Shown here piece after piece: positions 32,127-53,413 of a stretch of DNA of 64,000 nt. Under the pieces are notes generated by a model. The model worked only from the letters and a program-made list of their open reading frames with translations. It did not search any database and was not told the DNA's origin. This DNA is from Escherichia coli (GTDB lineage: Bacteria > Pseudomonadota > Gammaproteobacteria > Enterobacterales > Enterobacteriaceae). A program made the translations under genes and the position numbers. Within the stretch, counting starts at the first letter, position 1, and each line of letters starts with the position of its first letter. Where the stretch lies: the NCBI RefSeq assembly GCF_024223415.1, contig NZ_CP100500.1. One strand, written 5' to 3'.

Positions 32127-32128
32127 GA

Positions 32129-35210: not shown

Positions 35211-38200
35211 TTATCCAGCGATAATATAACTCCTAAGGTCATTACCCGGGGCAACAGCTCGCGCTCGCGTGTTTGCCAGCCGTTCAACTTGCTGCGGTAC
35301 TCGCAGGGCAAAATCAAAGAAGGTATCTTCAATACAGCGCCAGTAGCTAAGCCCCATGTCGAGCAGGACATAATGCTGACTGCCATCGCTGAAGGTGACT
35401 GTCAGTTCTCGTCCATGCTCCGTACTCTGGTTATCCCCCGTTAACCAGCTAATTGCTCCCGGCCACGCAGGCCCCAGATATCCTTCTTCAAGTAAAGTGG
35501 TCACAACCTGCTGACGATCTTCCTCATTAAGCCACGCGTTATAGAGAGCGTCGTGTTGGCGAGAGTTGTAATCCAATTTTTTGACGCAAACAGTGAGGCT
35601 GGCGCGTTCCGCCATTCCCTGTTCAACCAGCTCGGTTAAGATTTCACCTAACAAACGCGCCGTGAATGGGCTATTAAGATAACGATCGCTGTACTCAACA
35701 TGCGTTATCTCTTTGTGGCGGGTAAATGCCTGCTTCCAGCCAGCGTGCTGTTGCGTGACTAACGACCAGAAACGCGAACCAAAACCTTCCAGCGGCCCGT
35801 CCAGTTGTTCACAGAGATTGATGCGCACCGCCCCGGTGGGTAAGGCGGGCAGTAAATCTTCTGCACTTAAGGTCTGACCCGAGAAGTTTTTTCCGGACGT
35901 TCCTTTAAGTGTCACTACTGGTGAAGACGCACTTTGTCCCCATAATTCACCAGGGGCAACGGTAGCGCTGTCGTCTGCGGCCCACTGTTGGCTTTGCCCT
36001 TCGCGAGTCACCTGCGCAAGCCAGCGCCCCTTTCCTTGCATGAGTTGCGCAGTGGCAATGGATTTCACTTGTAAGCGTCCTCCCGGCATCGCCGCCAACG
36101 CGGAAAGCTGATGTCTGGAGCTATCAGTTAAGTTTTCCAGCGGCGTGGCCACCAGCAACTCAACATTCCCACCGGAGGAGGCAAACTGGAGCAACTCTTT
36201 AAATAATGGCCATTGGGCAAAGTCCCACTGTTCCTGCGGCCCCGCAAGAACCAGCGAGCAGGAGTCATAAATCTCGCTGTTCAGGCATTGCGCAATACGT
36301 AAACTCAGAGGGTTAGTTTCAACCCGGCTACCATCGCCGAAGTACTGATATTCTGGCGCGAGGTTAAGTCGCTGCAACCGTACATTGGTAAGCAGGGTTA
36401 ATGCATGGTGACGATCTAATCTGTTGACATAATGCTGACTGTCGTAGCTGAGCAAGCAGTGGTGACAAAATTTATCGCAACTGCAATCGAGCAATTTTCT
36501 GGCGTAATTAAAGACATCAGCCCAATGGTCGATCAATTGCACTGCATAACCTGCACCACCCGCATTATTGTCGTATATGAAGATGGAATATCCGGTATAG
36601 CCATTGATATCGCGCGCTTGCTGCGTCGTCACGCCCAGCTCAGTATTTTCGATACCCAATTTATGCGCTAACCCTTCACGCAAAGCGACCGCAAGGGAAC
36701 GCGCGGCAACCTCATCACGGATCAACAGGCCATTATCATCATTGAGTTGCAGCTCAACCATATCTGTACGACTGCTATATCCCAACCACAGATCTTTATG
36801 CACATGACCGTGGCACAATTTATTGCTCCCCTGACGATCGTTACTGCCCCCTCGCAACAGGTAATGCGTATTTTCCCGCTCTGGGTTCTTTAGATTTTCA
36901 GGGGTACGCTGGGGTTGAGTTTGAGATTCTGCCCGACCACATGAGAGGCAAATTGCGTAGCCGTGCCCAAATTCCCCTTCACTGAAGTGGAACAATTCCC
37001 CACTATGGCTAAAACGGTAACGTCCTAGCCCAGCATCGGGTAAAGAAACCCACACCGAAGACGGTACAAGAACACGTGGATCTTTCCAAGGAAGTTGTGC
37101 AGGCATGGATACATCATTATGTGCCTGATAACGAATATCTGTCGCAAAACCAACAGGCTGTAAATAACGCTTCACATCAAGTTGCTGTATATCCGCTTTG
37201 CAGTGACTACATTCGACAGGACGGGTAGTACTGGTTGCCCCCGCACCACATTTACGGCAATGCCAGAACCACGGAATGTGATGATCGCCTGACAGCTCCT
37301 GCCCGCTGGCAAGTACCTTGCCAAGCATAATGCCCGAGGAACGATATACTTTTCCGCCCAATACCACATCTGCACCAGGCGCATACTCGCGTAATGCTGT
37401 AGGTAGATCACGGCTGGGCAATTTTTCAATACGACGAGAAAAGCTTTCTCCCCCTTCATTAGGGTCAGCCTGAGTAGCTTTTATTGCACGACGTTTTTCC
37501 AGCTCATCTGCCGTCAGATAATTGAAATTGACGACGCCAACCGGGAAACCATGCCCCGGCAGGAACGCTTCACTAATGAGTTTAGAAAACAGATATGCAC
37601 CGCGATAATCACGAAGCTGATAAGCGATGGCTTTACCTGCTGGCGTTTCTTCCCACGCGCTGTTATCCGCCTTCAACGCTTCGATATTTTCCAACAGTAT
37701 CGCAAGTTGGCTTCTCCAGCGGATATCAACCTGCTGCATCATTGCTTGTGTGCGGGTCAAGAGCTGGGTTGCCGTCAATGACTTCAGGACGGTTCCCTGA
37801 GTAAGGCGTTTAAGTTTATCCGCCAGCTCATCGGCCTGGTGATTTAACCAATGAAGAAAACGAAGACACTGGCTCTCATCACCTTCAAAGAACCATTTGC
37901 AACTCAGTTTTGTCGCATCAGGTACTTCAGCTCGTAAAAACAGACCTAAAACCAGGGCATTAACATGTCGTTGAACAATACTACTGCTCCCAAAACGAAC
38001 CCGTGGCGCACTGGCAGTAGTGTTGAACGCCCAGAGGGGGTCTTTGAATACCTCCATTCCATGCGCCGTGTTTTTACATAACGTAATGGCAGCAGATGCA
38101 CTCTCTCCACGACGCCCCGCGCGACCTGCACGCTGCAAATAATTTGCCGGCGCTGGAGGAACGTTGTTCATTGCCACCAAACTCATACCACCAATATCCA

Positions 38201-38693
38201 CCCCCATCTCCATGGTCGTGGAACAGTTCAGCACATTAACTTTGCCTGACTTAAATTGTTTTTCATTAAACTGGTTCTGCTCAGGCGTTCTCTGCGCAGA
38301 GTGTTCCTCCAGACGATACCAGCTATCTTTCAGGGCCAGTCGGTCGCTGCGAGTAGACCATAATCCTTCCTCGCGGGCATGTTGAATCAGCGCATTACTT
38401 TCCAGCCACTCCAGACGTTCTTCTCGGGCGATTTCTCCACCACCAGACAAACGCCAGTGACGTACAGGAAGCTCAGGCATTTCAATCAACACTGCTTTTT
38501 CAGGTGCAATTTCTTTGCTACCCGGCAAATACGGAGAGTATCCCAGCAACGTGACGTCTAACGCACGTCGAGTATAGGGGCAACGCCACACTTGCTTTGG
38601 ACTGTAAAATTCAGCCTGTTGTTTAATATCCAGCTGATAACCCGACTCAAACTGACGTAAGCAGGGTCGAATTGCATCCCAGACCTCAATCAT
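35211..38693 (-). CDS. C-terminal segment (1160 aa) of a DruE-like giant helicase; frame open upstream to the A7 tract at 38830-38836
   Basis: Helicase motif VI …ANYLQRAGRAGRRGE… near its N-terminus (matching the C-terminal lobe of the upstream ORF), then Cys clusters (CRKCGAG…CSHCKAD, CLSCGRAES, CSCDKFCHHC). Architecture parallels the 2113-aa protein. Confidence 0.7.
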   Translation of the reverse strand: MIEVWDAIRPCLRQFESGYQLDIKQQAEFYSPKQVWRCPYTRRALDVTLLGYSPYLPGSKEIAPEKAVLIEMPELPVRHWRLSGGGEIAREERLEWLESNALIQHAREEGLWSTRSDRLALKDSWYRLEEHSAQRTPEQNQFNEKQFKSGKVNVLNCSTTMEMGVDIGGMSLVAMNNVPPAPANYLQRAGRAGRRGESASAAITLCKNTAHGMEVFKDPLWAFNTTASAPRVRFGSSSIVQRHVNALVLGLFLRAEVPDATKLSCKWFFEGDESQCLRFLHWLNHQADELADKLKRLTQGTVLKSLTATQLLTRTQAMMQQVDIRWRSQLAILLENIEALKADNSAWEETPAGKAIAYQLRDYRGAYLFSKLISEAFLPGHGFPVGVVNFNYLTADELEKRRAIKATQADPNEGGESFSRRIEKLPSRDLPTALREYAPGADVVLGGKVYRSSGIMLGKVLASGQELSGDHHIPWFWHCRKCGAGATSTTRPVECSHCKADIQQLDVKRYLQPVGFATDIRYQAHNDVSMPAQLPWKDPRVLVPSSVWVSLPDAGLGRYRFSHSGELFHFSEGEFGHGYAICLSCGRAESQTQPQRTPENLKNPERENTHYLLRGGSNDRQGSNKLCHGHVHKDLWLGYSSRTDMVELQLNDDNGLLIRDEVAARSLAVALREGLAHKLGIENTELGVTTQQARDINGYTGYSIFIYDNNAGGAGYAVQLIDHWADVFNYARKLLDCSCDKFCHHCLLSYDSQHYVNRLDRHHALTLLTNVRLQRLNLAPEYQYFGDGSRVETNPLSLRIAQCLNSEIYDSCSLVLAGPQEQWDFAQWPLFKELLQFASSGGNVELLVATPLENLTDSSRHQLSALAAMPGGRLQVKSIATAQLMQGKGRWLAQVTREGQSQQWAADDSATVAPGELWGQSASSPVVTLKGTSGKNFSGQTLSAEDLLPALPTGAVRINLCEQLDGPLEGFGSRFWSLVTQQHAGWKQAFTRHKEITHVEYSDRYLNSPFTARLLGEILTELVEQGMAERASLTVCVKKLDYNSRQHDALYNAWLNEEDRQQVVTTLLEEGYLGPAWPGAISWLTGDNQSTEHGRELTVTFSDGSQHYVLLDMGLSYWRCIEDTFFDFALRVPQQVERLANTRARAVAPGNDLRSYIIAG

Positions 38694-38755
38694 TAAGTGG
38701 TTAACTAACGATTTCCAGTGAGCCTGCTCAGGTTGTATTGCCGGAAAGACTGCGA

Positions 38756-41533
38756 TTAATAGCTTAATGACCCGGTTATAATGGCGATCGCGTATTTGTG
38801 GCCAAAGTTGATCACGTTTCTGCCCTTTGTTTTTTTATCTGGCCCCTGGAGCATTTTTACCGGGAAACGTGCCCCCATCCAGCGAGGGTATTGCTCGTTT
38901 TCGTAAAAAACGGCACTGTTTTCACGGATAAAGAAATCAAGAGTAATCTTCAATAAATTACGCCATTCCGCTAATTGCTTATCGGGATCGGGTAATAATG
39001 TCTTCCAGTCCTGCGGGCAGGTTGTAACTTTATCAATAAATGGATAGTGAATGGCTACCAGACCCAGACTTTCGAGGGTCCAGGCATTTTTAGGGCGGCG
39101 ACCAAACTCGCTGTATAAACAAAAATCTGCAAACTGTTGTTTAGTAAGATCAAGCCCAGACAATTCTTTAAAACTGCCTCTCATTCTATCGGCAAGGTCC
39201 ACACTGCCAACCAGCTGTTCAGACAGCGTTTGCCATGACATGGTTTTCTTCTGCTGATTGCCAGAGTTAACCTGAAGTATTTGCATCGCTTCAGCATGCT
39301 CCGGGCTTAAGGAACTCACCATCGGCTCAATAATTTTAAGTGACTGAATGTCCGCCGGGCTAAGCTCCTCATTCGCAGCCATCGCTTTTTTCAGCGCGTC
39401 GATGGAATTTTTTAAAGGGAGGACAGAAAACTGGCTAATAACTTTCTCTAACAGTGCACAGTGTGCCGGGCTGAGTTTTGCTGAAGGCTCTGTAATATTT
39501 GCCAGCTCCTGGTAACAAAGAGCTCGCAACGTCGCTTTATCGGCATCCTGCTGTAAGCGGGCTGAAATGCGAGCGGTACCCTGACGCGAATCCGTAAAGG
39601 TGAGCAAGCGTCGACCATTAAACGGTCCTAACTGCTCTTCTCTTGTTTGCGGTAATGGAGAAAACTCCAGCAGAGTAGGAATAATTTCATTTAAAAAAAA
39701 GGGCGCGCCGAGCCGAAGCGGACGGAATAAAGGATTATTTTTCCGTTGAGTGTCACCACAGCAAACACAAGCAAAGGAGTTATTGCGCCCCTCACCTCGA
39801 GATTCCGGTCTTAACAGGTTTATTTCATAGTGCTTTTGCGCTTCACTATCAATTTTCCCCGCCGTCGTTTCTTCCAGTGAAATGATATATTTTTCACCAT
39901 CGCTCGCAATCAGACGATCAAATTGAGAGTTATTGTCTAATTCGTCGTTGTCTTCATCTTCAGAATAAACATCTACATCAAGAGCAAACTCATCCACTTC
40001 GGCAGCGGCTGGTTGCGCTACCAACCAGTTCGTTCCATCACCGCGCATCTCCTCTTTGGCAGACAAATAAGCTGAACCACACCCGGAGCAACGTAAAACT
40101 TCAAATACCGGCGCTCCACAGTCACAATATTGGCGCTGCTCAAACCATACCTGACCAAATGGCCAGTCACTCTGATTTAATTCATGTGCTTTATGTGAGC
40201 ATTGTTTGTTTGAACATGCCCATAGACCCGCCAGTGTTCTGATAAACCCATGCATACGTAATGGCGTAAAAGCCAGTTCACCTTCTCGCGATCTTGCCAT
40301 TAGATCGAGGAGTTGCAGTAGCTCACGGTGATTAATATCTGGCCAGGTTCTTCTGGCAACATTGAGCAACTCACTCAAACGTACTGCCTGCCGTCCGGGA
40401 TGAGTTAACGCCTGACGCAATTGCTGGGCCACACGGTAATGACAAAGCTGTTGGTAAAGATCCTGAGGGCTCAGGGATTTAAGAGAAGTTAAAGATGTGG
40501 GGTATTCATGACGAATCAGCGACTCCGATACCCGCGGTATTTGTCGATAACCGCGAACCACTTTGACATCACGTTCTGTAACGCCCGCGAGATCAGCGAC
40601 AAATTTAGCAAGCTCCTTATTACCTTCAGGAGAGTCTTCACCAATAGTGGCAGAGGTCGCGATAATCTGCACAGGTTTATCTGTGCCGGGTCCAACATTG
40701 AAAGCCTGCATAACACGACGTAAAAGCAGCGCTAACTCAGCAGCCTGAGAACCAATATAACTATGGGCTTCATCCAGGACGATATACTTTAACATCCCCT
40801 GAGACTTTTCGATGATTGGGGCATCTTTACGACGAATCAGCATATATTCCAGCATGGTGGTATTCGTCACCATGATGGAAGGTGGTGCTTCATAAATGGC
40901 TTCCCGACTCAAAGCTTGTTCAGGTACTTTCAACTGATCTTCCTGAACTTCGTATTTGGTATGCCGGGTTTCGCCATTATATAGCGCGAAGCGTATTTTC
41001 CCCTTAAATCCGCGCGTCCATTCGCGAAGCCGCTCCTGTTGGCTGTTAATTAATGCATTTAACGGATACAAGAAAATAGCTTGTGTCCCTGTTAGTGACT
41101 GGCGGGTCGATTTTTGCTGACGAATAAGATCTTCCAGAACCGGTACCATAAAGCATTCTGTTTTCCCGGATCCCGTACCGCTGCTCACTAACAAGGATTT
41201 TTTGTCTTCCAGAATCGTTCGCCACGCAGTAAGTTGATGACGAAATGGCACTGGCGCTTTGCTCAATGCATCAACCAGCGGGCTGGAGATCAGCTTGTCC
41301 CGCAAATCCTCCATTGTTTCATCCGCAGGCATCCAGCCGAATGTACTTTCGAATACCGGGTCTGCAAGCAGTGACCCCTCCTGACCGGGAGGCTGAAAAT
41401 ATTGTGATTCCAGATAATGAGTCAACGACTTGCTCCGCAATGCCAACTGACTTACCACCGACCTCACCGCACGCTGATGAAGCTGATTTAGAAGTGGCGC
41501 ATAATGCAGTTGCTGAACGTCCATCAATGACAT
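38756..41533 (-). CDS. N-terminal segment (925 aa) of a DruE-like giant helicase; ends 2 codons... stop shortly after an A7 tract
   Basis: Motif I VSSGTGSGKTECFMVPVL, motif II VLDEAHSYIG, internal Cys clusters as in the 2113-aa paralog. It is in a different frame from the downstream 1160-aa ORF by exactly one nucleotide. Confidence 0.7.
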   Translation of the reverse strand: MSLMDVQQLHYAPLLNQLHQRAVRSVVSQLALRSKSLTHYLESQYFQPPGQEGSLLADPVFESTFGWMPADETMEDLRDKLISSPLVDALSKAPVPFRHQLTAWRTILEDKKSLLVSSGTGSGKTECFMVPVLEDLIRQQKSTRQSLTGTQAIFLYPLNALINSQQERLREWTRGFKGKIRFALYNGETRHTKYEVQEDQLKVPEQALSREAIYEAPPSIMVTNTTMLEYMLIRRKDAPIIEKSQGMLKYIVLDEAHSYIGSQAAELALLLRRVMQAFNVGPGTDKPVQIIATSATIGEDSPEGNKELAKFVADLAGVTERDVKVVRGYRQIPRVSESLIRHEYPTSLTSLKSLSPQDLYQQLCHYRVAQQLRQALTHPGRQAVRLSELLNVARRTWPDINHRELLQLLDLMARSREGELAFTPLRMHGFIRTLAGLWACSNKQCSHKAHELNQSDWPFGQVWFEQRQYCDCGAPVFEVLRCSGCGSAYLSAKEEMRGDGTNWLVAQPAAAEVDEFALDVDVYSEDEDNDELDNNSQFDRLIASDGEKYIISLEETTAGKIDSEAQKHYEINLLRPESRGEGRNNSFACVCCGDTQRKNNPLFRPLRLGAPFFLNEIIPTLLEFSPLPQTREEQLGPFNGRRLLTFTDSRQGTARISARLQQDADKATLRALCYQELANITEPSAKLSPAHCALLEKVISQFSVLPLKNSIDALKKAMAANEELSPADIQSLKIIEPMVSSLSPEHAEAMQILQVNSGNQQKKTMSWQTLSEQLVGSVDLADRMRGSFKELSGLDLTKQQFADFCLYSEFGRRPKNAWTLESLGLVAIHYPFIDKVTTCPQDWKTLLPDPDKQLAEWRNLLKITLDFFIRENSAVFYENEQYPRWMGARFPVKMLQGPDKKTKGRNVINFGHKYAIAIITGSLSY

Positions 41534-44500
41534 ACTCCTGCTTGTTCAAAATAATATTGATAGATTACACCTAATTGCTGTGGGGCTTGCTGATAGTGAA
41601 ATTCAAAAAGCGCAGACAGTTGATGTATCAGGTTATTATCTTTTTGGGTTAACAGCGCTGCGACTAACATCAAATTAAAACGTTTTTCAAGCCGTGAGTG
41701 ATATTTATCTTCAATCCAAAGCTTATTAAAAACAGATTTTAACTCTGGAGTAATAGCACTAGACCAAAGTTCTTTAGGGAAGATACTGATACGCCCAAAG
41801 CTGTCGGGGTTCCTTAATAGCATCTGTTTAGCTTCATTAAACTGCTCACGACTAACAGTTGGCAATACATCACAACCGGTTGGTAGGCTCTCACTATATG
41901 TAAGTAACATATTCGCAATCGGAGCCAGCCGACGATCGATATGTGCACGATGGTTCATAAAAGCAATAAAGGGTTGCAATATATGTAATGCTAATGTTTT
42001 ATCGTTAATCTGTTTCTCCAGATAAGTCCAACATTTTTGGAAAACATCTTTCCAGATTGAAACGGGAATCCATCCCCATGAAAAGGGTAATTCTTCCTGT
42101 ATATCATAAATCGTATCGCTATCACCAGAAAGACATGATGATATTAACAATTGAACAACCACGCGGTAATTACTCGAAATACCTCTGAACAAGTCCAGAT
42201 CCAGCAAGGATAAGCCATTATTCATTTTGTATTTCTTAATATACTCTGTTAATAAACAGCAATAATTTTGCAATGGGTTGTTATCTATTTCAAAAATTAG
42301 CTCATTAAAATTTTTTTTGCGCTGTTCTGGGTCTGCTTCGCATAGAGCATTTAGTAATAAATCATTTGTCTGCAATACAGGTAGCATCCATTTAATTACT
42401 GGTGCAATGCGAGCTGTACCATCAAGTTTTCCCACAATTAACCATGGACTATCCTGAACATTCAGAGCTGAAAGATCATAAGCAAACTCATCTTTTTTTA
42501 ACAATGATATGTGTAAGCCAGGATTCTTAAGAGAAATAGCATCAACAACCAGTTCGTCTATTCTATTTGCAGGAAAAACAACAGAATTTTTTATATCAAC
42601 CAGTAACCCTTGATCGTGTTCAATAAAACTACCATCGTAGCGTTTAATATTGAGTGTTGCTTTATCCTTTCCAAATCTGTCAGAGTAAAAATCAACACAT
42701 AATGTACTATTGCTGTTCCATGCACATGCCAGCATAGCATTTAGCAAATTATAGTTCTCATAAAGTGAAATTTGTTGTAATTTGTCATTGCGTCCTGATA
42801 AAAGAGGAAGGTCGGCATGTAAATAGCGGAATTTTTCAGCTACTGGATTTTCATCCAATAACTCGATATTAAGATATCCTCTTCCAGCACATGATATGGT
42901 TAATAACTCAGCATCTATTCCATGCAAATGTGCTATAGATGCCACACCATCAAAATGAACAGAACCATCATTAGTTACAAATCGGCCACCGCTAACCGGC
43001 TTAGGTAATAATAGTTTAAGATTAGAACCATCTTTCCAGGAGACCCGTAAATCAACGGTATTTTCCAGCATCAGCGATGAATTATAATAAATAGCACACT
43101 CGTTTTGTGAATAATCGGACTTAAGTGTTACTTTTTCATTGTTTAAATATTTATCAATTCTAGTATCCGTTATACCAGAAAGCATAATAATGCCTTGCTG
43201 AGCACTCTCAGGTATAATATTAATATCGAAGTCTGCTGGTAAAACTACAACTTTACCGCTAAATAAAACCTCATCATTAACTATTCGCCGGACTTCTATC
43301 TGTCCTTTTGGCATTTCTGATGCGACAGAATACCAGGCATTGTTACCTGAACGAATGGAACGCCAAAAAAGTTCTTTCTCCGGTACAATGCCATATTGCA
43401 GATCCTTTTTCCAACCGATCTTCGGCCAGGCTCGATGGACAGGATAATCCGATTTAACCAGTTCAACTTCTGTCGATTTAATATAATATTCAATCGCAGA
43501 ATCATAAAGTTGCTGGGTGCGAATTGTACAAACTGCACCATCATGTAAAACAACGCTAAATACTCCACTTATTTTAGTTAAGCTGCGTTCACTGTTTTTC
43601 AGCAACCTTGGGATATCAAACTCACCTTCTCCACTAATATCTAAATGGCTATTTTTCGGTAGCGAAATAAACAGAGCATTTAGCCTGGAACTCACAGACC
43701 CCATACCAACAAGTTTTAGCTGCGATTCACTCTCATTCATCGCTTCAAAAACCCAGGGAAGTTCTTCAGTAAGTTCATAACCGCCTTTTGGAATTGTGTG
43801 ACCTAACAGAATTGGACCTTCATGAAGCGACAATGAGATTTCGGCCATTGCATCTGCACCAGAGAGTTTTTGCATCGCAATAGGTAATAACTCGACCCGC
43901 CAATCTTGCTGCTCATAACGGCTTAGCATTGCCAACCTTGCCCCGCCATTTTTCCATTTTCCTGAAATGATGAGTCGGGTCTGCTCCGGCTGAATATGGC
44001 ATTCAAACAAAGAGGTTAACTGTTCTGTACGCATTGTGGCCGGGAATCGGAACCGGGCATCGCAATACCAACTGTCATCAACATCGACCCAGATTCTTTC
44101 AACCTGAAGACTACTTGCACTGCGTATTTCAGAAGATTGAGATAGTAATCGCCTTACAATCTCTGCAGCATTCGCTTCGGGGAGAACGAGTGGAAGTTTA
44201 AGATGCCAGTCTGGAGAGAGCTTACGTAATGCAGAAACGGGATCACTGCTTTGAGGAGGATGCTCACTAAGTAATCGGCAGAGAGTCTCGCAGAATTCAC
44301 CGGCTATTTCATAGACCAGTTCGTTTTGCATTGTGACAGGAATCGTATCGCCTAATTCTTGTGCAATTTTAGCGGCAGGATATTGAGATGATTGCCCACG
44401 AAGCGCCTGATATATCCTTCTGAAATAGGTAATCAAATAACCGCTCTCATTTTCAATCATGCGGATAGGCAAACCACCTTCACAAGCCAGTGTATGCAGA

Positions 44501-44883
44501 TAACCCGAAGCTTGTCCCAGGTTTCTTATCTTTCTTTTCCAGTAGCGAATGCCATCATTAACCAGCTTCTGTCGATGAACATACGGAACTTTCCAGTTAA
44601 TAGAATCTAAAATTGTGTCCCATTTAGGGTGTCCGACCGTATGAGTCCGGCGGATAAACTCTGCGGCATATATGCTAAATAGAACATCGCTATAGGAAAT
44701 GAATATCGTTCTTGGATAACTACGGGGGGCATATGTACGCAGTAGTTCTGCCAAACTTTCGTACTCTGTATCAGTACAACGGTAAGCATATAACGCCCGT
44801 CCATCAGCTCCGGATAATGAACGGCGACTAAAAAACATGTTAAGCCATTGCAAAAGTGGGTTAACTGGAGTTTTCACAAGCAA
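41524..44883 (-). CDS. 1119-aa protein of unknown function (DruH-like partner of the giant helicase)
   Basis: Large ORF with no motif recognisable by eye. Its stop overlaps the start of the 925-aa helicase ORF by ~10 nt, implying co-translation. Position and size fit the partner gene of Druantia type III. Confidence 0.5.
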   Translation of the reverse strand: MLVKTPVNPLLQWLNMFFSRRSLSGADGRALYAYRCTDTEYESLAELLRTYAPRSYPRTIFISYSDVLFSIYAAEFIRRTHTVGHPKWDTILDSINWKVPYVHRQKLVNDGIRYWKRKIRNLGQASGYLHTLACEGGLPIRMIENESGYLITYFRRIYQALRGQSSQYPAAKIAQELGDTIPVTMQNELVYEIAGEFCETLCRLLSEHPPQSSDPVSALRKLSPDWHLKLPLVLPEANAAEIVRRLLSQSSEIRSASSLQVERIWVDVDDSWYCDARFRFPATMRTEQLTSLFECHIQPEQTRLIISGKWKNGGARLAMLSRYEQQDWRVELLPIAMQKLSGADAMAEISLSLHEGPILLGHTIPKGGYELTEELPWVFEAMNESESQLKLVGMGSVSSRLNALFISLPKNSHLDISGEGEFDIPRLLKNSERSLTKISGVFSVVLHDGAVCTIRTQQLYDSAIEYYIKSTEVELVKSDYPVHRAWPKIGWKKDLQYGIVPEKELFWRSIRSGNNAWYSVASEMPKGQIEVRRIVNDEVLFSGKVVVLPADFDINIIPESAQQGIIMLSGITDTRIDKYLNNEKVTLKSDYSQNECAIYYNSSLMLENTVDLRVSWKDGSNLKLLLPKPVSGGRFVTNDGSVHFDGVASIAHLHGIDAELLTISCAGRGYLNIELLDENPVAEKFRYLHADLPLLSGRNDKLQQISLYENYNLLNAMLACAWNSNSTLCVDFYSDRFGKDKATLNIKRYDGSFIEHDQGLLVDIKNSVVFPANRIDELVVDAISLKNPGLHISLLKKDEFAYDLSALNVQDSPWLIVGKLDGTARIAPVIKWMLPVLQTNDLLLNALCEADPEQRKKNFNELIFEIDNNPLQNYCCLLTEYIKKYKMNNGLSLLDLDLFRGISSNYRVVVQLLISSCLSGDSDTIYDIQEELPFSWGWIPVSIWKDVFQKCWTYLEKQINDKTLALHILQPFIAFMNHRAHIDRRLAPIANMLLTYSESLPTGCDVLPTVSREQFNEAKQMLLRNPDSFGRISIFPKELWSSAITPELKSVFNKLWIEDKYHSRLEKRFNLMLVAALLTQKDNNLIHQLSALFEFHYQQAPQQLGVIYQYYFEQAGVCH

Positions 44884-45094
44884 CCTGCCTTCCTTTGATA
44901 CAATTCGTAACAGGTTACTATCATCATAAAAAAGCTCAACCCGATGAACTCGCTAAAAATGAGACAAATCATTTATATCTCGAAAAAACTTGTTACAATC
45001 ATGAGCGCTACACCGAACTTAACCATATAAATTATGTGTGTTTTGTTTATTTTTTAAACGATTACAACTATCCATTATTTACACAGGTATCAAA

Positions 45095-46747
45095 ATGTTA
45101 GCGCAGCTTTTTGAGCAGTTGTTTCAATCGATAGACTCTACACTGATCACCAATATTTTCATCTGGGCTGTTATATTCGTATTTTTATCAGCGTGGTGGT
45201 GTGACAAAAAAAATATACATAGTAAGTTTAGAGAATATGCTCCAACCTTAATGGGGGCATTAGGTATTCTGGGTACTTTCATTGGTATTATTATTGGTTT
45301 ACTCAATTTTAATACCGAAAGTATTGATACCAGCATCCCCGTATTATTAGGTGGCCTAAAAACAGCATTCATTACAAGCATTGTAGGTATGTTTTTTGCC
45401 ATTTTATTTAATGGAATGGATGCTTTCTTTTTTGCCAATAAACGAAGTGCGTTAGCAGAAAATAACCCTGAATCTGTTACACCTGAACATATCTATCATG
45501 AATTAAAAGAGCAGAACCAGACTCTGACTAAATTAGTCTCGGGTATTAACGGTGATAGTGAAGGTTCTCTTATTGCTCAAATAAAATTACTACGTACTGA
45601 GATTAGCGATTCCTCGCAGGCACAATTAGCTAATCACACTCATTTCAGTAATAAGCTTTGGGAACAACTTGAACAATTTGCAGATCTAATGGCAAAAGGT
45701 GCTACAGAACAAATTATTGATGCTTTGCGACAAGTCATTATTGATTTTAATCAAAATTTAACTGAACAGTTTGGTGAAAACTTTAAAGCTCTTGATGCCT
45801 CTGTAAAAAAACTTGTTGAGTGGCAGGGAAATTATAAAACGCAAATTGAGCAGATGTCAGAACAATATCAACAAAGTGTCGAGTCCCTGGTTGAAACAAA
45901 AACTGCGGTTGCAGGGATTTGGGAAGAATGTAAAGAAATTCCTCTGGCTATGTCTGAACTGCGTGAAGTGCTTCAGGTGAACCAACATCAAATCAGCGAA
46001 CTCTCCCGCCATTTAGAAACCTTTGTCGCCATCCGCGATAAAGCTACAACCGTATTACCTGAAATACAGAACAAAATGGCTGAAGTGGGTGAACTGCTGA
46101 AATCCGGAGCTGCAAATGTTAGTGCATCTCTTGAGCAAACCAGCCAGCAAATACTTCTTAATGCAGATTCAATGCGCGTTGCCCTGGATGAAGGTACCGA
46201 AGGATTCAGACAATCGGTTACCCAAACACAACAAGCATTTGCCTCGATGGCACATGATGTCAGCAATTCCTCCGAAACCTTAACCAGCACGTTAGGTGAA
46301 ACAATTACTGAAATGAAACAAAGTGGTGAAGAATTCCTGAAATCACTAGAGTCGCACTCGAAAGAATTGCATAGAAATATGGAACAAAATACGACGAATG
46401 TGATTGATATGTTCAGTAAGACTGGTGAAAAGATTAACCATCAACTATCCAGTAATGCCGATAATATGTTTGATTCAATCCAGACATCATTTGATAAGGC
46501 AAGTGCAGGGCTGACTTCTCAAGTCAGAGAATCAATTGAAAAATTTGCTCTATCCATCAACGAGCAGTTACATGCTTTTGAGCAAGCAACTGAACGTGAA
46601 ATGAACCGTGAAATCCAATCATTAGGTAATGCTCTGCTTTCAATCAGCAAAGGTTTTGTCGGTAACTATGAAAAACTTATTAAAGATTACCAAATAGTTA
46701 TGGGGCAGTTACAAACATTAATTTCTGCTAATAAACATCGCGGGTAA
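45095..46747 (+). CDS. zorA: Zorya ZorA-like (MotA/ExbB-like membrane domain with long coiled-coil tail)
   Basis: N-terminal TM helices (…LMGALGILGTFIGIIIGLLNF…, …FITSIVGMFFAILFNG…) then ~400 aa of heptad-rich low-complexity sequence. The start is taken at ATG 45095 (AGG RBS); the ORF track uses an upstream GTG at 45038. Confidence 0.75.
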   Translation: MLAQLFEQLFQSIDSTLITNIFIWAVIFVFLSAWWCDKKNIHSKFREYAPTLMGALGILGTFIGIIIGLLNFNTESIDTSIPVLLGGLKTAFITSIVGMFFAILFNGMDAFFFANKRSALAENNPESVTPEHIYHELKEQNQTLTKLVSGINGDSEGSLIAQIKLLRTEISDSSQAQLANHTHFSNKLWEQLEQFADLMAKGATEQIIDALRQVIIDFNQNLTEQFGENFKALDASVKKLVEWQGNYKTQIEQMSEQYQQSVESLVETKTAVAGIWEECKEIPLAMSELREVLQVNQHQISELSRHLETFVAIRDKATTVLPEIQNKMAEVGELLKSGAANVSASLEQTSQQILLNADSMRVALDEGTEGFRQSVTQTQQAFASMAHDVSNSSETLTSTLGETITEMKQSGEEFLKSLESHSKELHRNMEQNTTNVIDMFSKTGEKINHQLSSNADNMFDSIQTSFDKASAGLTSQVRESIEKFALSINEQLHAFEQATEREMNREIQSLGNALLSISKGFVGNYEKLIKDYQIVMGQLQTLISANKHRG

Positions 46748-46753
46748 TCGATC

Positions 46754-47461
46754 ATGGATAAGATTATAGGGAAACAATTACCTAAAAAAGATCAAGATAA
46801 TGAACATTGGGTATCCATGTCAGACCTAATGGCAGGGCTGATGATGGTTTTTATGTTCATATCTATTGCTTATATGCACTACGTACGTATTGAAAAAGAA
46901 AAAATTAAAGAAGTTGCCGTAGCCTACGAGAATGCTCAGTTACAGCTTTATAATGCTCTGGATATTGAGTTTGCAAAGGATTTACAAGACTGGGATGCAG
47001 AGATCGATAAACAGACTCTGGAGGTTCGATTTAAATCACCGGATGTTTTATTTGGCTTAGGAAGCACAGAGCTAAAACCAAAGTTTAAACTCATTCTTGA
47101 CGACTTCTTTCCTCGCTACCTAAAAGTTCTAGATAATTATCAGGAACATATTACTGAAGTCCGCATTGAAGGTCACACAAGTACTGACTGGACAGGAACA
47201 ACGAATCCTGATATTGCTTATTTTAATAATATGGCACTATCGCAAGGTCGTACACGTGCAGTATTACAATACGTTTATGACATAAAAAATATCGCGACAC
47301 ACCAACAATGGGTTAAAAGTAAATTTGCCGCAGTAGGTTATTCATCTGCACATCCCATTCTTGATAAAACCGGCAAGGAGGATCCTAATCGCTCTCGTCG
47401 TGTCACCTTCAAAGTTGTAACAAATGCCGAGTTGCAGATTAGAAAGATTATTCAGGAGTAA
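46754..47461 (+). CDS. zorB: Zorya ZorB-like (MotB-like membrane anchor with OmpA-type peptidoglycan-binding domain)
   Basis: N-terminal TM (…LMAGLMMVFMFISIAYM…) and OmpA-like motif …RIEGHTSTDW…NMALSQGRTRAV…NRSRRVTFKV. Confidence 0.75.
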   Translation: MDKIIGKQLPKKDQDNEHWVSMSDLMAGLMMVFMFISIAYMHYVRIEKEKIKEVAVAYENAQLQLYNALDIEFAKDLQDWDAEIDKQTLEVRFKSPDVLFGLGSTELKPKFKLILDDFFPRYLKVLDNYQEHITEVRIEGHTSTDWTGTTNPDIAYFNNMALSQGRTRAVLQYVYDIKNIATHQQWVKSKFAAVGYSSAHPILDKTGKEDPNRSRRVTFKVVTNAELQIRKIIQE

Positions 47462-47464
47462 GAG

Positions 47465-48568
47465 ATGAAATTATCTATCGACCTTTCAGAACTTATTCAA
47501 TTAGGGAAGAAAATGTTACCAGAAGGAGTCGATTTTTTTCTGGATGAATCCCCTATTGACTTTGATCCTATAGATATTGAGTTATCCACGGGTAAAGAAG
47601 TTAGTATCGAAGATCTTGACCCTGGTAGCGGGCTTATCTCTTATCATGGCCGCCAGGTTCTTTTATATATTCGGGACCATTCAGGGCGTTATGATGCGGC
47701 TATCGTAGATGGCGAAAAAGGAAAACGTTTTCATATTGCCTGGTGCAGAACTCTTGATGAAATGCGCCATAAAAATCGATTTGAAAGGTATCATGCAACT
47801 AACCGCATAGATGGTTTATTCGAAATTGATGATGGTTCAGGTCGGAGCCAGGATGTTGATTTACGGGTATGTATGAATTGCCTCGAACGACTTAATTATA
47901 AAGGAAGTATTGATAAACAACGAAAAAGAGAGATTTTTAAATCATTCTCATTAAATGAGTTTTTTTCAGATTATAGTACCTGTTTTCGTCATATGCCTAA
48001 GGGTATCTATGACAAAACAAATAGTGGGTATGTCGAAAACTGGAAGGAAATATCTAAAGAAATACGAGAAAAGGCCAATTATGTTTGTAATGATTGTGGC
48101 GTGAATTTATCAACCGCCAAAAACTTGTGCCATGTCCATCATAAAAATGGCATCAAATATGATAATCACCATGAAAACCTTCTTGTTCTGTGCAAGGATT
48201 GCCATCGAAAACAGCCCCTCCACGAAGGTATATTCGTTACCCAAGCTGAGATGGCTATCATTCAACGTTTACGTTCCCAACAAGGGCTATTAAAAGCAGA
48301 ATCCTGGAATAAAATATATGACCTGACTGATCCATCAGTGCATGGTGATATTAATATGATGCAACATAAAGGCTTTCAACCTCCTGTTCCTGGGTTAGAT
48401 CTTCAAAACTCAGAACATGAAATTATTGCAACCGTAGAAGCTGCATGGCCAGGCCTTAAAATTGCAGTTAACCTTACTCCCGCCGAAGTCGAAGGATGGA
48501 GAATATATACCGTGGGTGAGCTGGTTAAAGAAATACAAACCGGAGCCTTTACGCCAGCAACTTTGTAA
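47465..48568 (+). CDS. zorE: Zorya type II effector ZorE-like HNH endonuclease
   Basis: HNH motif CNDCGVNLSTAKNLCHVHHKNGIKYDNHHENLLVLCKDCH. It follows zorB by 3 nt. Confidence 0.7.
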   Translation: MKLSIDLSELIQLGKKMLPEGVDFFLDESPIDFDPIDIELSTGKEVSIEDLDPGSGLISYHGRQVLLYIRDHSGRYDAAIVDGEKGKRFHIAWCRTLDEMRHKNRFERYHATNRIDGLFEIDDGSGRSQDVDLRVCMNCLERLNYKGSIDKQRKREIFKSFSLNEFFSDYSTCFRHMPKGIYDKTNSGYVENWKEISKEIREKANYVCNDCGVNLSTAKNLCHVHHKNGIKYDNHHENLLVLCKDCHRKQPLHEGIFVTQAEMAIIQRLRSQQGLLKAESWNKIYDLTDPSVHGDINMMQHKGFQPPVPGLDLQNSEHEIIATVEAAWPGLKIAVNLTPAEVEGWRIYTVGELVKEIQTGAFTPATL

Positions 48569-48753: not shown

Positions 48754-49032
48754 CTTTGTAGACAGGAGACAGTCACAATGAATAAAACAATAAATTGATG
48801 TCGCACGCGCCGATGGGCATGGCGGGTAATGTAACTTTTGTACACAACGGCAAGGCTTATGTTACTGGCGGTGTTAACCAGAACATCTTCAATGGCTATT
48901 TTGAAGATCTCAACGATGCTGGAGAATATTTAGCAGCTATAGACAAGATCAATGCCTATTATTTCGACAAAAAAGCAGAAGATTATTTCTTCAATAAGTT
49001 TTTGTTGTCTTTTGATCCCTCAACACAGCAAT
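48754..49032 (+). pseudogene. diverged nanM remnant (first ~37 bp of nanM fused to an internal ~240-bp nanM segment), preceded by a nanC-promoter-like GGTATA repeat at 48687-48700
   Basis: 48754-48790 matches 15079-15115 (gtagacaggagacagtcacaatgaataaaacaataa). 48791-49032 matches 15460-15700 at roughly 90 percent identity by eye. Same orientation as the intact nanM. Confidence 0.8.
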
Positions 49033-49107
49033 GGATCTTCACTTGCAGGCTTGAACAGCAGAAAATTTGCGAGCATGATCGCAATTATTTCACTGCCAGG
49101 GATATCA

Positions 49108-49980
49108 ATGGCTTCCAGTAAATCGCTACAGCAGGCAATTGCCAACATAAAAATCTGGCACAAGGGTGAACAGCGCGCGCCGCATAAGCCATTGTTATTG
49201 CTATACGTATTAGCGGGATACCTGAATGGACATCCACGCCTTTTCGATTATGGATCGGAAATCTACGAACCTCTGCACAGTTTACTGGAACGTTTTGGGC
49301 CACAGCGTTCACAGTACCGACCTGATATGCCGTTCTGGCGATTACAAGGCGACGGATTCTGGCAATTACACAATGCCGAGCTTTGCTCAACAGCAGGGAG
49401 CAGCCGACAACCGCCAGTGAAGGAACTGAACGAATACCACGTTGCAGGCGGTTTCGATGAACAGCACTACGCCCTGGTAACCGGCAATAAAAAACTCATC
49501 AATACTCTGGCGCAACAGATACTCGAAGCGCACTTCACCGAGAGTATTCAGGAAGAAATTGCTGACGAGCTGGGTTTTGATCTCCAGCAAATCCGTAAAC
49601 AGCGCGACCCGTTATTTCGCAAAAATGTATTACGCGCTTATAACTACCAGTGCGCGATATGTGGCTTTAATATGCGCCACGACGACACCACCGTCGCGCT
49701 GGAAGCGGCGCATATAAAATGGAAACAGCACGGCGGTCCTTGTGAAATTCCTAATGGCCTGGCGCTTTGCGCAATTCACCATAAAGCCTTTGATAAAGGA
49801 TCGATTGGCCTGGATGAAAATATGCGGGTACTGGTCTCGGATGCGGTAAACGGCGGAGGGATCGTTGAGAGATTATTCTGGGATTTTGACGGGAAAACTA
49901 TTGCGTTGCCGCAGGTGCGTAAAAATTACCCTTATGAGGGGTTTGTGGAGTGGCATCGGGAAGAGGTTTTTAGGGGGTGA
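49108..49980 (+). CDS. HNH endonuclease with unidentified N-terminal domain (candidate modification-dependent restriction enzyme)
   Basis: C-terminal HNH motif YQCAICGFNMRHDDTTVALEAAHIKWKQHGGPCEIPNGLALCAIHHKAFD. The start is taken at ATG 49108 (MASSKSLQQAIANIKIW) with AGGGA RBS, because the ORF-track start at 48952 lies in the nanM remnant. Confidence 0.6.
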   Translation: MASSKSLQQAIANIKIWHKGEQRAPHKPLLLLYVLAGYLNGHPRLFDYGSEIYEPLHSLLERFGPQRSQYRPDMPFWRLQGDGFWQLHNAELCSTAGSSRQPPVKELNEYHVAGGFDEQHYALVTGNKKLINTLAQQILEAHFTESIQEEIADELGFDLQQIRKQRDPLFRKNVLRAYNYQCAICGFNMRHDDTTVALEAAHIKWKQHGGPCEIPNGLALCAIHHKAFDKGSIGLDENMRVLVSDAVNGGGIVERLFWDFDGKTIALPQVRKNYPYEGFVEWHREEVFRG

Positions 49981-50024
49981 GGTTGATAACTATCGCAGTA
50001 TGTTCAATATTGCTGACATAATCA

Positions 50025-50204
50025 GTGCAGGATCTTGCCGCTAGTTTACAACTCGCCTTCGATAGCGGCGCAAAACGTGTTCTGTTGCCGATATCCTCGG
50101 CTATGGATATTCCAACAGTTCCGGCAGAGTTGTTTACCAAGTTTCAGGTAAGTTTTTACTCAGAACCGGTTGATGTGGTTTATAAGGCGCTGGATGTGAA
50201 TTAA
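50025..50204 (+). pseudogene. possible 3-prime remnant of a Lon-like protease gene (BrxL-like C-terminus)
   Basis: Short frame encoding …GAKRVLLPISSAMDIPTVPAELFTKFQVSFYSEPVDVVYKALDVN*, which resembles the extreme C-terminus of Lon-family proteases from memory. No upstream coding sequence remains. Confidence 0.3.
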
Positions 50205-50537
50205 CACATTCCTCAGCTTATTTACAAAAGGATTATTCCCATTTGATATAATATCAGTGCCAATTTACTTTTTTCAATGGAATATATCTCGGCTAAATAA
50301 CAATAAAACTTATCGCTAATTGATTAAATAAACAATTTTCTAATTCATTTCACCACCTTTGATATAGAAATTGATGGTGTTGTCGCTGCCATTGCTTATG
50401 GTGATGATAAAATCCACGTTTCTGGATCGTTGCGTAGAAAATCATCACTACCTTGATATTTTGATGCGATATGATCATACCGTTCCGTAGTACCAATTTC
50501 AATTTCAGGCTAAACCCCAACATTAAAAAAATTAGAG

Positions 50538-50579
50538 TTATTCACTGATTATATTATCAATAATATAATCAGTGAATAA
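50538..50579. repeat. 42-bp near-perfect AT-rich palindrome (20-bp arms, 2-nt centre)
   Basis: ttattcactgattatattat-ca-ataatataatcagtgaataa; all 20 arm positions pair. It lies ~25 bp downstream of the stop of the 682-aa minus-strand ORF. Confidence 0.8.
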
Positions 50580-50602
50580 CATGGACTATATAATAAATTG
50601 CT

Positions 50603-52651
50603 CTAATCATTTCCCTTACGAATATATGGGCCAAAAGCCCAAGAATCATAATAAGGGTGATGGACTAGTTTTTCATTAAATCGAACACTATAAGTTAATT
50701 TTTTTATATTTTTACGTACAGCATTAATACTGGGCAAAGAGGAAAGATAATCTATAAACTTATCGATAGTGATTTCCCCTTCGCAACACTCAAACCCATC
50801 AATGATATTTTTCGCCATTTTTCCATTTTCATTTGTTTGATATATCACTCCAGGTATTCGTTGAAAAAAACTAGATAATGCATATTTGTCCGCTACATAT
50901 GTATCATCCACATGATATTTCCCACCGAGCATAGTTGTAGTAACAATAAGCTTATACACACCTTTGGGTTGCCATGTTGATGGTAGTTCGAATTCTTTAA
51001 TGATCACATCAAGATGATTAAGATAATGTTCAGAAATTCGATTTATTTGTTGAAAATAAGAACGCATAAATTTATTATTATGATCATGTATTAATGAGCT
51101 ATCTCCAACGATGTTACACATTTGCTGATAGTATTTACCATAATATATTGGTTGACCATTTGATTTTAGTTCTGTAAAAATCAAACAATCATCCAGGAGA
51201 ATCACGCAATCGCACTGATAATTAGCATGAGCATCAATTGGAGAAGCTTTAATCCCCGCATCACGAACTTGTTTTATAAATTGTTGCTCATGAAATCGCC
51301 CTTTACTTGCTTGAGAAATTTTTTTGGAACCAAATAATGACATTAGAGAGCGAGTCACTGAGCTATTTGCTATTAATGCAGGCATTAAGCATAAACCGTC
51401 CATACAGGGAATAAATGGGCAATCATTAAGATCATGTGATTTTGAATTGAAGGTAAAATAATCTATCAGTTTTTTTGCTGCATCTGCTGCAATCCCCTTA
51501 CGTTGAAAGAATGATAACCAACTCTCACGGCTTTTTATGATCAGCCAGCGATCCAACTGTAGGGGTATAGGTTTTGTCGATGAAAATCTTTTGCTCATTT
51601 CTTCTTTAGATAACTCGACTAAACATTGATAAGCGTGCACCCAATTAAATAATGATATATTCCCATATTCTTCATGAAGGTCATCAGGAGACATATTTTC
51701 CAACTCGCTTAGATGAAATGAGCTAAAAACGCCATCAGAATTTAAGTAAGATGGCATATGATCCTTTACCCAACTATTTAGATGAAAATGTTTGTTACTA
51801 AATTCATGAACTTCGCTATATAGATGTGACGCTCTCATCATTAGTCTATTTCTTGCAATCTCATAATCTCGGTATAAACAAAAACTATCAACCTCAAGAG
51901 AGTAAATGTTATTATCCAATTTTGTAAATACTGCACTACTTAGTCTGAAAAAGTCTCTTACTCTGCTTAATGAGTCAAAAACATTCCACTCATTAAGGTA
52001 CCCTCCCATTGAAAGCAAGGTTTGTTTATTCACACAAGAAGTTAGTTTCAATGGCTCATGAGTCCGTAAATAAGAAAATATTCTTCCGGTGTAATTGGCT
52101 ACCTCATCAAATGCCCTATCGATAACTCGAAAATATTCGATATCAGGTTCAGCATGAATATTAATATTTTCAGAAACGATAAATAATGGAAAAATCCTCT
52201 TCATTTTTTTAGGATCATTGACCACAACCAAGGATGATAATGATGATAAAAACATCTCACAAAACATGATGAGATTAAGTATTAATGCATGTGATTTTTT
52301 TGTATTTTTACGCCAAATACCAGCACATTTTGTAGCCGCAAAGAAAGAATTATTTATATCATGCATAATTTTACATTGACTCTCGAACTCAGAAATTAGT
52401 TCAATGTTATCAGGAAATGAGTTTACTAGCTCATTAATACATTTTTTGAATGTATTGTTATACTCAACTTCAGTCTGAACTGAAAATCTATTATAATAGA
52501 TGGAAGATATTCTCAGCACATCCAAGGCGATATCTATACTAATATCATCTCTTTTTATGTACTCACAAAAAAAAGAACAAAACTGTTTCGGGTCGTTAGC
52601 AAGATTACTAATTCTAGTGGTATCATAAACTTTTTCCATTTTTCCATACAT
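50603..52651 (-). CDS. 682-aa hypothetical protein, very AT-rich, possible C-terminal PD-(D/E)xK-like patch
   Basis: Long uninterrupted ORF in the most AT-rich stretch of the window, adjacent to leuX. No recognisable P-loop. C-terminal segment …YQCDCVILLDDCLIFTELK… has the hydrophobic-D…E-x-K spacing of PD-(D/E)xK nucleases (weak, by eye). Confidence 0.6.
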   Translation of the reverse strand: MYGKMEKVYDTTRISNLANDPKQFCSFFCEYIKRDDISIDIALDVLRISSIYYNRFSVQTEVEYNNTFKKCINELVNSFPDNIELISEFESQCKIMHDINNSFFAATKCAGIWRKNTKKSHALILNLIMFCEMFLSSLSSLVVVNDPKKMKRIFPLFIVSENINIHAEPDIEYFRVIDRAFDEVANYTGRIFSYLRTHEPLKLTSCVNKQTLLSMGGYLNEWNVFDSLSRVRDFFRLSSAVFTKLDNNIYSLEVDSFCLYRDYEIARNRLMMRASHLYSEVHEFSNKHFHLNSWVKDHMPSYLNSDGVFSSFHLSELENMSPDDLHEEYGNISLFNWVHAYQCLVELSKEEMSKRFSSTKPIPLQLDRWLIIKSRESWLSFFQRKGIAADAAKKLIDYFTFNSKSHDLNDCPFIPCMDGLCLMPALIANSSVTRSLMSLFGSKKISQASKGRFHEQQFIKQVRDAGIKASPIDAHANYQCDCVILLDDCLIFTELKSNGQPIYYGKYYQQMCNIVGDSSLIHDHNNKFMRSYFQQINRISEHYLNHLDVIIKEFELPSTWQPKGVYKLIVTTTMLGGKYHVDDTYVADKYALSSFFQRIPGVIYQTNENGKMAKNIIDGFECCEGEITIDKFIDYLSSLPSINAVRKNIKKLTYSVRFNEKLVHHPYYDSWAFGPYIRKGND

Positions 52652-53328: not shown

Positions 53329-53413
53329 TGGTGCCGAAGGCCGGACTCGAACCGGCACGTATTTCTACGGTTGATTTTGAATCAACTGCGTCTACCGATT
53401 TCGCCACTTCGGC
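53329..53413 (-). tRNA. leuX: tRNA-Leu (anticodon CAA)
   Basis: Reverse complement reads GCCGAAGTGGCGAAATCGGTAGACGCAGTTGATTCAAAATCAACCGTAGAAATACGTGCCGGTTCGAGTCCGGCCTTCGGCACCA, with anticodon loop TTCAAAA and a T-run downstream. Confidence 0.95.

Follow-up and report, generated by a model that had tools for sequence, protein, structure and literature searches.

The segment 49990-50487 of the window, a 64,000-nucleotide stretch of the Escherichia coli contig NZ_CP100500.1 (assembly GCF_024223415.1), is very probably a non-functional deletion scar, left by a BREX type 1 island with an adjoining phospholipase-D-like (PLD-like) gene that formerly occupied the leuX hotspot. What it retains of brxL, the last gene of the BREX type 1 phage-defence system, is the 3' end. 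The scar is documented by homology, by its junctions, by disabling lesions, by synteny with intact islands and by relaxed constraint. The leuX locus corresponds to E. coli defence hotspot #37, which is reported as the most heavily occupied of 41 hotspots and as hosting BREX in 9% of its islands (PMC12707154); BREX has been reported only at E. coli hotspots #1 and #37 (PMC10121019).

The recognizable part of the scar is an open reading frame (ORF) located on the plus strand at 50025-50204. It starts with GTG, encodes 59 amino acids ending in ...FYSEPVDVVYKALDVN, and corresponds to the last 59 brxL codons (residues 636-694) plus the stop codon. Residues 2-60 of the ORF match positions 622-680 of the 680 of the PADLOC BrxL profile PDLC02506 (E=2.9e-19), and the NCBIfam BrxL model TIGR02653 is matched at positions 617-675 of 675 (E=7e-24), with 84.1 bits against a cut-off of 628.25. 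A tblastn search of the window with intact E. coli BrxL yields one HSP (E=4e-28), in which residues 606-694 correspond to 49992-50201. The tail is 93.9% identical in nucleotide sequence to intact E. coli brxL. The match to the Pfam domain Lon_C (PF05362) is marginal (E=0.095, 12.7 bits against a cut-off of 21.1). Judging from these comparisons, the ORF can be assigned specifically to the BrxL C-terminus, at a level far beyond chance. The original prediction had noted a resemblance of this orphan frame to the extreme C-terminus of Lon-family proteases, and had read it as a BrxL-type remnant of a former BREX type 1 system. The resemblance is BrxL-specific, and the proposed search against BrxL and Lon sequences returned similarity, not its absence, both by tblastn and with two BrxL profiles. 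The former system is also accounted for, as an intact array is found at the same position in strain PapM-32-1. The solved C-terminal domain of BrxL (8EIL) spans residues 512-693, and the ORF covers less than one third of this Lon-like domain. The GPSTATS segment (residues ~595-601), hosting the GPS serine motif, lies upstream of the retained codons and is absent from the remnant.

The interval 50025-50204, to which the remnant had been confined in the original prediction, correctly delimits the ORF, but the island-derived DNA is not limited to these 180 bp and covers about 500 bp (49990-50487). When compared in nucleotides and codons to its intact counterpart in PapM-32-1 (locus L001), the plus-strand segment 49990-50024 corresponds to BrxL codons 605-616. 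Here the relic reads TIAVCSILLT*S in place of the intact LIALCSILLAKP, and a TAA at 50019-50021 has replaced the codon for Lys615. Nineteen codons (V617-P635) are then missing because of an in-frame 57-bp deletion located between two 8-bp GTGCAGGA direct repeats; deletions between direct repeats are the typical pattern of slippage. Altogether about 70 of the 694 brxL codons are left, codons 1-604 and 617-635 being absent. Alignments show that the ORF is followed by a remnant of the spacer separating brxL from the PLD-like gene (50205-50302, plus strand), which measures 98 bp versus 118 bp in intact islands, about 19 bp having been deleted. The 5' fragment of the PLD-like gene (codons 1-62) comes next, at 50303-50487 on the same strand, as determined by tblastn, frame translations and alignment. 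Its start codon has been lost (ATG to ATA), single-base indels scatter its sequence over three reading frames, and a TGA is found at 50321-50323 in this window. In tblastn searches, residues 1-16, 13-37 and 37-62 of the PLD-like protein are found in three different frames (E=1e-13). Alignment to intact islands shows that homology stops at 50487/50488. Searched by tblastn with all six BREX proteins, the window gave the brxL tail as sole match, and no brxA, brxB, brxC, pglX or pglZ.

Comparison of leuX-proximal islands in other E. coli strains, also suggested in the original prediction, provided the counterpart of the scar. The BREX-positive reference is PapM-32-1, the one genome whose flanks were fully read. 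The gene order in this strain is nanC, nanM, nanS', HNH', a PT-DNA restriction gene, a NucS_C-like gene, brxA, brxB, brxC, pglX, pglZ, brxL, the PLD-like gene, AbiEi/AbiEii and further island content. The intact brxABC-pglXZ-brxL-PLD array thus lies at the same locus as the scar, after the same PT-DNA restriction gene. Relative to PapM-32-1, the window lacks 14,450 bp (L001 5458-19907), containing the NucS_C-like gene, five BREX genes and brxL codons 1-604. The adjacency of brxL and the PLD-like gene is also seen in strains 504838 and ETEC-2264, and about 400 genomes host an intact brxL of this family. The gene may be located at the leuX hotspot, as in PapM-32-1, or elsewhere, as in E. coli HS, at ~0.35 Mb; the HS locus is the thrW island (PMC9009780).

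The breakpoints of the scar are at 49989/49990 on the left and at 50487/50488 on the right. The left flank is the intact PT-DNA restriction gene (49108-49980, plus strand), which encodes a phosphorothioated-DNA-binding HNH endonuclease of the ScoMcrA type (NCBIfam NF045808, E=7e-132; Pfam HNH_2). The gene and the 9 bp past its stop codon are 98.1% identical to PapM-32-1, and homology extends up to 49989. The brxL-derived DNA begins at 49990, directly after. As no foreign DNA is present at this junction, the left breakpoint is a plain 14,450-bp deletion. No convincing microhomology was found there: the flank ends ...GATAA, brxL resumes C(T)TATCGC, and one base is unaccounted for. The search for repeats or att-like sites at the breakpoints similarly returned only short, chance-level repeats.

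At the right breakpoint the scar adjoins a different cassette on the minus strand (50488-52651; the whole, ~2.8 kb, extends to about 53276); in intact islands this place is taken by the remainder of the PLD-like gene, by the AbiE genes and by the integrase. The cassette segment is complete in 331 E. coli genomes. Just inside it, at 50537-50580, a perfect 21-bp inverted repeat with a 2-nt loop is followed by a minus-strand T-run, and is probably the terminator of the gene for a conserved hypothetical protein of 682 amino acids (50603-52651, minus strand) placed between the BREX scar and leuX. The protein has no family match in Pfam, NCBIfam or PADLOC. Homologues are found in Salmonella (75%) and, at 41-56%, in Izhakiella ('NERD domain' in UniRef), Xenorhabdus, Pectobacterium and Pantoea. 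Residues D481, D487, E494 and K496 are invariant, and the stretch ...CDCVILLDDCLIFTELK... in which they lie is reminiscent of a PD-(D/E)xK nuclease motif. The gene is a possible single-gene defence candidate of no known family. An AlphaFold model of the protein (mean pLDDT 56, pTM 0.37) was too poor for a fold search. The tRNA-Leu(CAA) gene leuX, identified by ARAGORN at 53329-53413 on the minus strand, anchors the variable island. The region is the fim-nan-leuX-idn region of E. coli, with ahr, idnK and idnD to the right of leuX and the fim and nan genes far to the left, and the defence island occupies the nanS-leuX interval.

The distribution of the scar was monitored by a nucleotide search of 5,426 complete E. 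coli genomes with the segment 49981-50620. Matches were found in 474 genomes, 339 of which gave a single match spanning at least 80% of the query. Identity was at least 95% in 360 genomes, and the same junctions were found in every high-identity genome inspected. The scar junctions hence appear to be common to about 360 of the 5,426 genomes (~6%), and the scar is older than this strain. In another 114 genomes similarity was 80-90% and restricted to 50025-50487; among the matches listed, most of these are annotated with the PLD-like gene downstream of an intact brxL. The closest database match to 49981-50620 is 99.8% identical, not 100%. Among nine scar copies compared, a GCG to GTG change (Ala to Val) at 50176 in the tail is unique to this window. 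In RefSeq, window-type remnants are labelled as pseudogenes, either as 'peptidase' or as 'hypothetical protein; incomplete; missing N-terminus' (E371, EC1515, RM9872, BH100, MS20655, HB37), and the pseudogene mark is found in every relic genome inspected. A 4180-bp contig assigned to a 'Lachnospiraceae bacterium' MAG (SFGN01000178.1) carries the E. coli scar at 98.6% identity; almost certainly it derives from E. coli and was mis-binned into a Firmicutes MAG.

Other outcomes of BREX decay have been identified at the locus. ECJXMCRH7 and a divergent Escherichia genome (GCA_903932005.1, hereafter L010) share the left junction of the window, but another cassette directly follows the brxL stop codon. 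The 57-bp deletion is likewise present in L010 (positions 8001-8228), whose tail shares 97.8% identity with the extant intact E. coli brxL allele. This combination of relic lesions and nearly intact tail would imply recombination between relic and intact alleles. In LR-25 (L004 7245-9379) an IS1-flanked deletion has spared the PLD-like gene, and IS1 is found in place of brxA-brxL. In strain 503440 (L015 1004-3177) a deletion fuses fimC' to brxL, of which 1,875 bp are left. With LR-25 and strain 503440, at least two further independent losses of BREX are known at this locus. All these products, as well as the engineered Salmonella 'brxL remnant, resemble the scar in being independent BREX losses or truncations in the leuX island with flanking genes kept. 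They differ from it in their breakpoints: the PLD-like gene is intact in LR-25, brxL is 1,875 bp long in strain 503440, and in ECJXMCRH7 and L010 the left junction is shared and the cassette is different.

Decay is uneven along the scar. Once changes were polarised with K. oxytoca, the fixed relic-derived substitutions numbered 2 (4 when ambiguous sites are counted) in the 180-bp tail, 24 plus indels in the downstream 283 bp, and ~5 in the upstream 35 bp (Fisher p=6e-4). The two fixed tail substitutions change Met to Ile at 50093 and Gly to Asp at 50194. Five more differences between the tail and the extant E. coli allele are third-position changes that occurred on the intact lineage, which makes the parent of the scar a slightly different brxL allele. 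Such a parent, namely an intact brxL showing the synonymous states of the window type, was found neither in E. coli, nor in 100,044 species-representative genomes, nor in metagenomes. A degenerate-codon DNA pattern of the tail peptide, run against the 100,044 species genomes, detected only brxL genes of Cedecea, Franconibacter ('Enterobacter pulveris'), K. oxytoca and Pantoea (70-81%), and one MAG contig with the scar itself. A protein search with the 60-aa fragment retrieved short fragments only, among which scar variants, and no full-length BrxL and no donor. A divergent E. coli brxL allele of 95.5% identity (MS 69-1, N24) was also considered as parent and rejected, as its tail is of the ordinary E. 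coli type. Simple simultaneous inactivation does not explain the uneven decay. The data fit best either with the PLD-like gene having died long before BREX in the parent lineage, or with recombination between relic and intact alleles within the tail.

The uneven decay and the L010 alleles are also why a small probability is kept for the tail having been retained as useful. Though distinctly improbable, the tail may serve either as a small BrxL C-terminal peptide coupled to the PT-DNA restriction gene, or as a homology anchor for the recombinational exchange of BREX-adjacent cassettes. The latter idea fits the occurrence of the same junction with two tail alleles, and the few fixed changes in the tail relative to the flanks. 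A functional small protein, either of 59 amino acids made from the internal GTG or of 75 amino acids translationally coupled to the restriction gene where the stop is missing, might modulate the endonuclease or interfere with incoming BREX, and is highly improbable. The frame is open in most copies and is reported as a protein by many gene callers, and fixed changes are far scarcer in the tail than in the adjoining DNA. Copies of the L010 and P0001 types have no stop at the Lys615 codon, and the resulting 75-aa ORF starts at a GTG overlapping the TGA of the restriction gene (GTGA), preceded by AGGGGG. In Salmonella, moreover, an over-expressed 807-nt brxL 3' remnant had global effects (PMC9009780).

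Substitutions weaken the case for such a protein. In the nine window-type scar copies compared, a small sample, tail changes are 6 non-synonymous, including one nonsense (GAA to TAA in ECJXMCRH7), and 2 synonymous; the intact tails of E. coli and K. oxytoca differ at 4 non-synonymous and 33 synonymous positions (Fisher p=6e-4). Polymorphism is no lower in the tail (5 sites in 180 bp) than in the downstream flank (6 in 283 bp). The TAA at 50019-50021 of the window cuts off the coupled start, and a consensus scan found no Shine-Dalgarno sequence ahead of the GTG at 50025; promoter-like matches were also returned by consensus scans, and are uninformative. The peptide would cover less than a third of the Lon-like domain and would lack the GPS serine motif, and RefSeq treats the remnant as a pseudogene. 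Since changes among scar copies mostly alter amino acids, as opposed to the 4:33 ratio of intact alleles, we conclude that the tail is most plausibly a pseudogene fragment free of constraint, and that its open frame is accidental.

The DNA to the left of the scar is rich in defence genes. A four-gene cluster on the minus strand (18743-34987) encodes a DrmD-like SNF2 helicase (952 aa), a type IIG methyltransferase/restriction enzyme (1643 aa), a 2113-aa DruE-like helicase with a ZorE-like HNH C-terminus and a UvrD/GajB-like helicase (704 aa). The cluster may be described as DISARM-like or Druantia-like, and does not cleanly fit one named system. It is followed by a Druantia type III system, with druE at 35211-41533 (minus strand) and druH, intact, at 41524-44883. 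A single in-frame stop at ~38756-38758 (...GAR*KNKGQ...) divides druE into ORFs of 925 and 1160 amino acids, which correspond to positions 4-865 and 907-2051 of the DruE3 profile. Unless this stop is a sequencing error, the system is probably inactivated. The Zorya type II genes zorA, zorB and zorE are located at 45038-48568. Between zorE and the restriction gene, at 48758-49035, lies a second copy of an internal part of nanM, ~93% identical to the genuine gene and marked as a pseudogene in EC1515 and RM9872. This fragment marks the right edge of the defence block (~31 kb) whose insertion separated nanS from the restriction gene. The mechanically called ORF 48952-49980 is an artefactual 5' extension of the restriction gene through this fragment, the real start being at 49108.

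The original prediction had attributed the truncation of the earlier system to incoming DNA. At the left breakpoint the attribution fails, and only the right breakpoint adjoins a different cassette, that of the 682-aa gene. That insertion of the adjacent Zorya II, Druantia III and helicase/IIG cluster truncated BREX is a very remote prospect. These systems do lie directly to the left of the scar (18743-48568), and cassette replacement at the leuX hotspot is known (PMC12707154). Against this, the Zorya/Druantia block is separated from the scar by the restriction gene, intact and still followed by 9 bp of its native flank, and the left junction is free of foreign DNA. E371, BH100, MS20655 and HB37 carry the same scar with identical junctions and no Zorya/Druantia block, in the order nanM, nanS', HNH', restriction gene, scar and a gene for a 678-aa protein. 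The block is therefore not responsible for the truncation, and its insertion as the cause of the left breakpoint is refuted.

That the similarity of the ORF arose by chance, or that the fragment comes from a housekeeping Lon protease and not from BREX, is next to inconceivable, and is refuted: the marginal Lon_C match would suit this reading, but the BrxL-specific models match at their exact C-terminal profile positions, nucleotide identity to E. coli brxL is high, and BREX-island homology runs on downstream into the spacer and the PLD-like gene.

A deletion scar of the BREX and PLD-like island remains the preferred reading, and its history may be sketched as follows. The ancestral order would have been PT-DNA restriction gene, NucS_C-like gene, brxA, brxB, brxC, pglX, pglZ, brxL, PLD-like gene, AbiEi/AbiEii, integrase and leuX, an arrangement that persists in some E. 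coli. One deletion of ~14.45 kb would have removed the DNA from 9 bp past the stop of the restriction gene to brxL codon 604. In a second event the PLD-like gene from codon 63 on and the rest of the island would have been lost, the cassette of the 682-aa gene taking their place. Later decay would have introduced the nonsense codon, the 57-bp slippage-type deletion between the 8-bp direct repeats, the loss of the PLD start codon and the frameshifts. We infer this order of deletion events, and also that the 59-aa ORF is not expressed; it would be an accident of the surviving reading frame, devoid of function.

Compared to BrxL (TIGR02653; PDLC02506; structures 8EMC, 8EMH and 8EIL), the remnant is alike in that its last 59 residues and 12 upstream residues are BrxL, and it shares with intact brxL the chromosomal position and the spacer and PLD-like gene that follow. 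It differs in that the Lon-like domain has lost two thirds of its length and the domains ahead of it (N-terminal and ATPase) are missing, so that the architecture of full-length BrxL (~680-700 aa: N-terminal domain, ATPase, Lon-like C-terminal domain) is not retained. Nor is it the last gene of a brxA-brxB-brxC-pglX-pglZ-brxL operon in the window. The ORF neither reaches the gathering score of the Lon protease S16 C-terminal domain nor holds its catalytic serine motif. Truncation relative to orthologues at the same locus, disabling lesions and relaxed constraint, the marks of a pseudogene and of a deletion scar, are all found, and the remnant is a pseudogene, not a BrxL. The window conforms to the pattern published for hotspot #37, with BREX, AbiE, Zorya and DISARM-like content and replacement. 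The surveys PMC10121019 and, in its leuX passages, PMC12707154 catalogue intact systems, and term searches of these texts gave no mention of this scar. The scar is ordinary, the hotspot is well described, and RefSeq already flags the pseudogene in every relic genome inspected.

On its own the scar carries little weight, adding a further example of how defence systems turn over at the busiest such hotspot of E. coli. Its analysis provides exact breakpoints for BREX loss in ~6% of complete E. coli genomes, and corrects the annotations 'hypothetical protein', 'peptidase' and 'ATP-dependent Lon protease' to BrxL pseudogene. In defence-system finders and gene callers, ORF 50025-50204 should count neither as a gene nor as evidence of BREX. 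For tracing the history of hotspot #37, the scar could be of use as a lineage marker.
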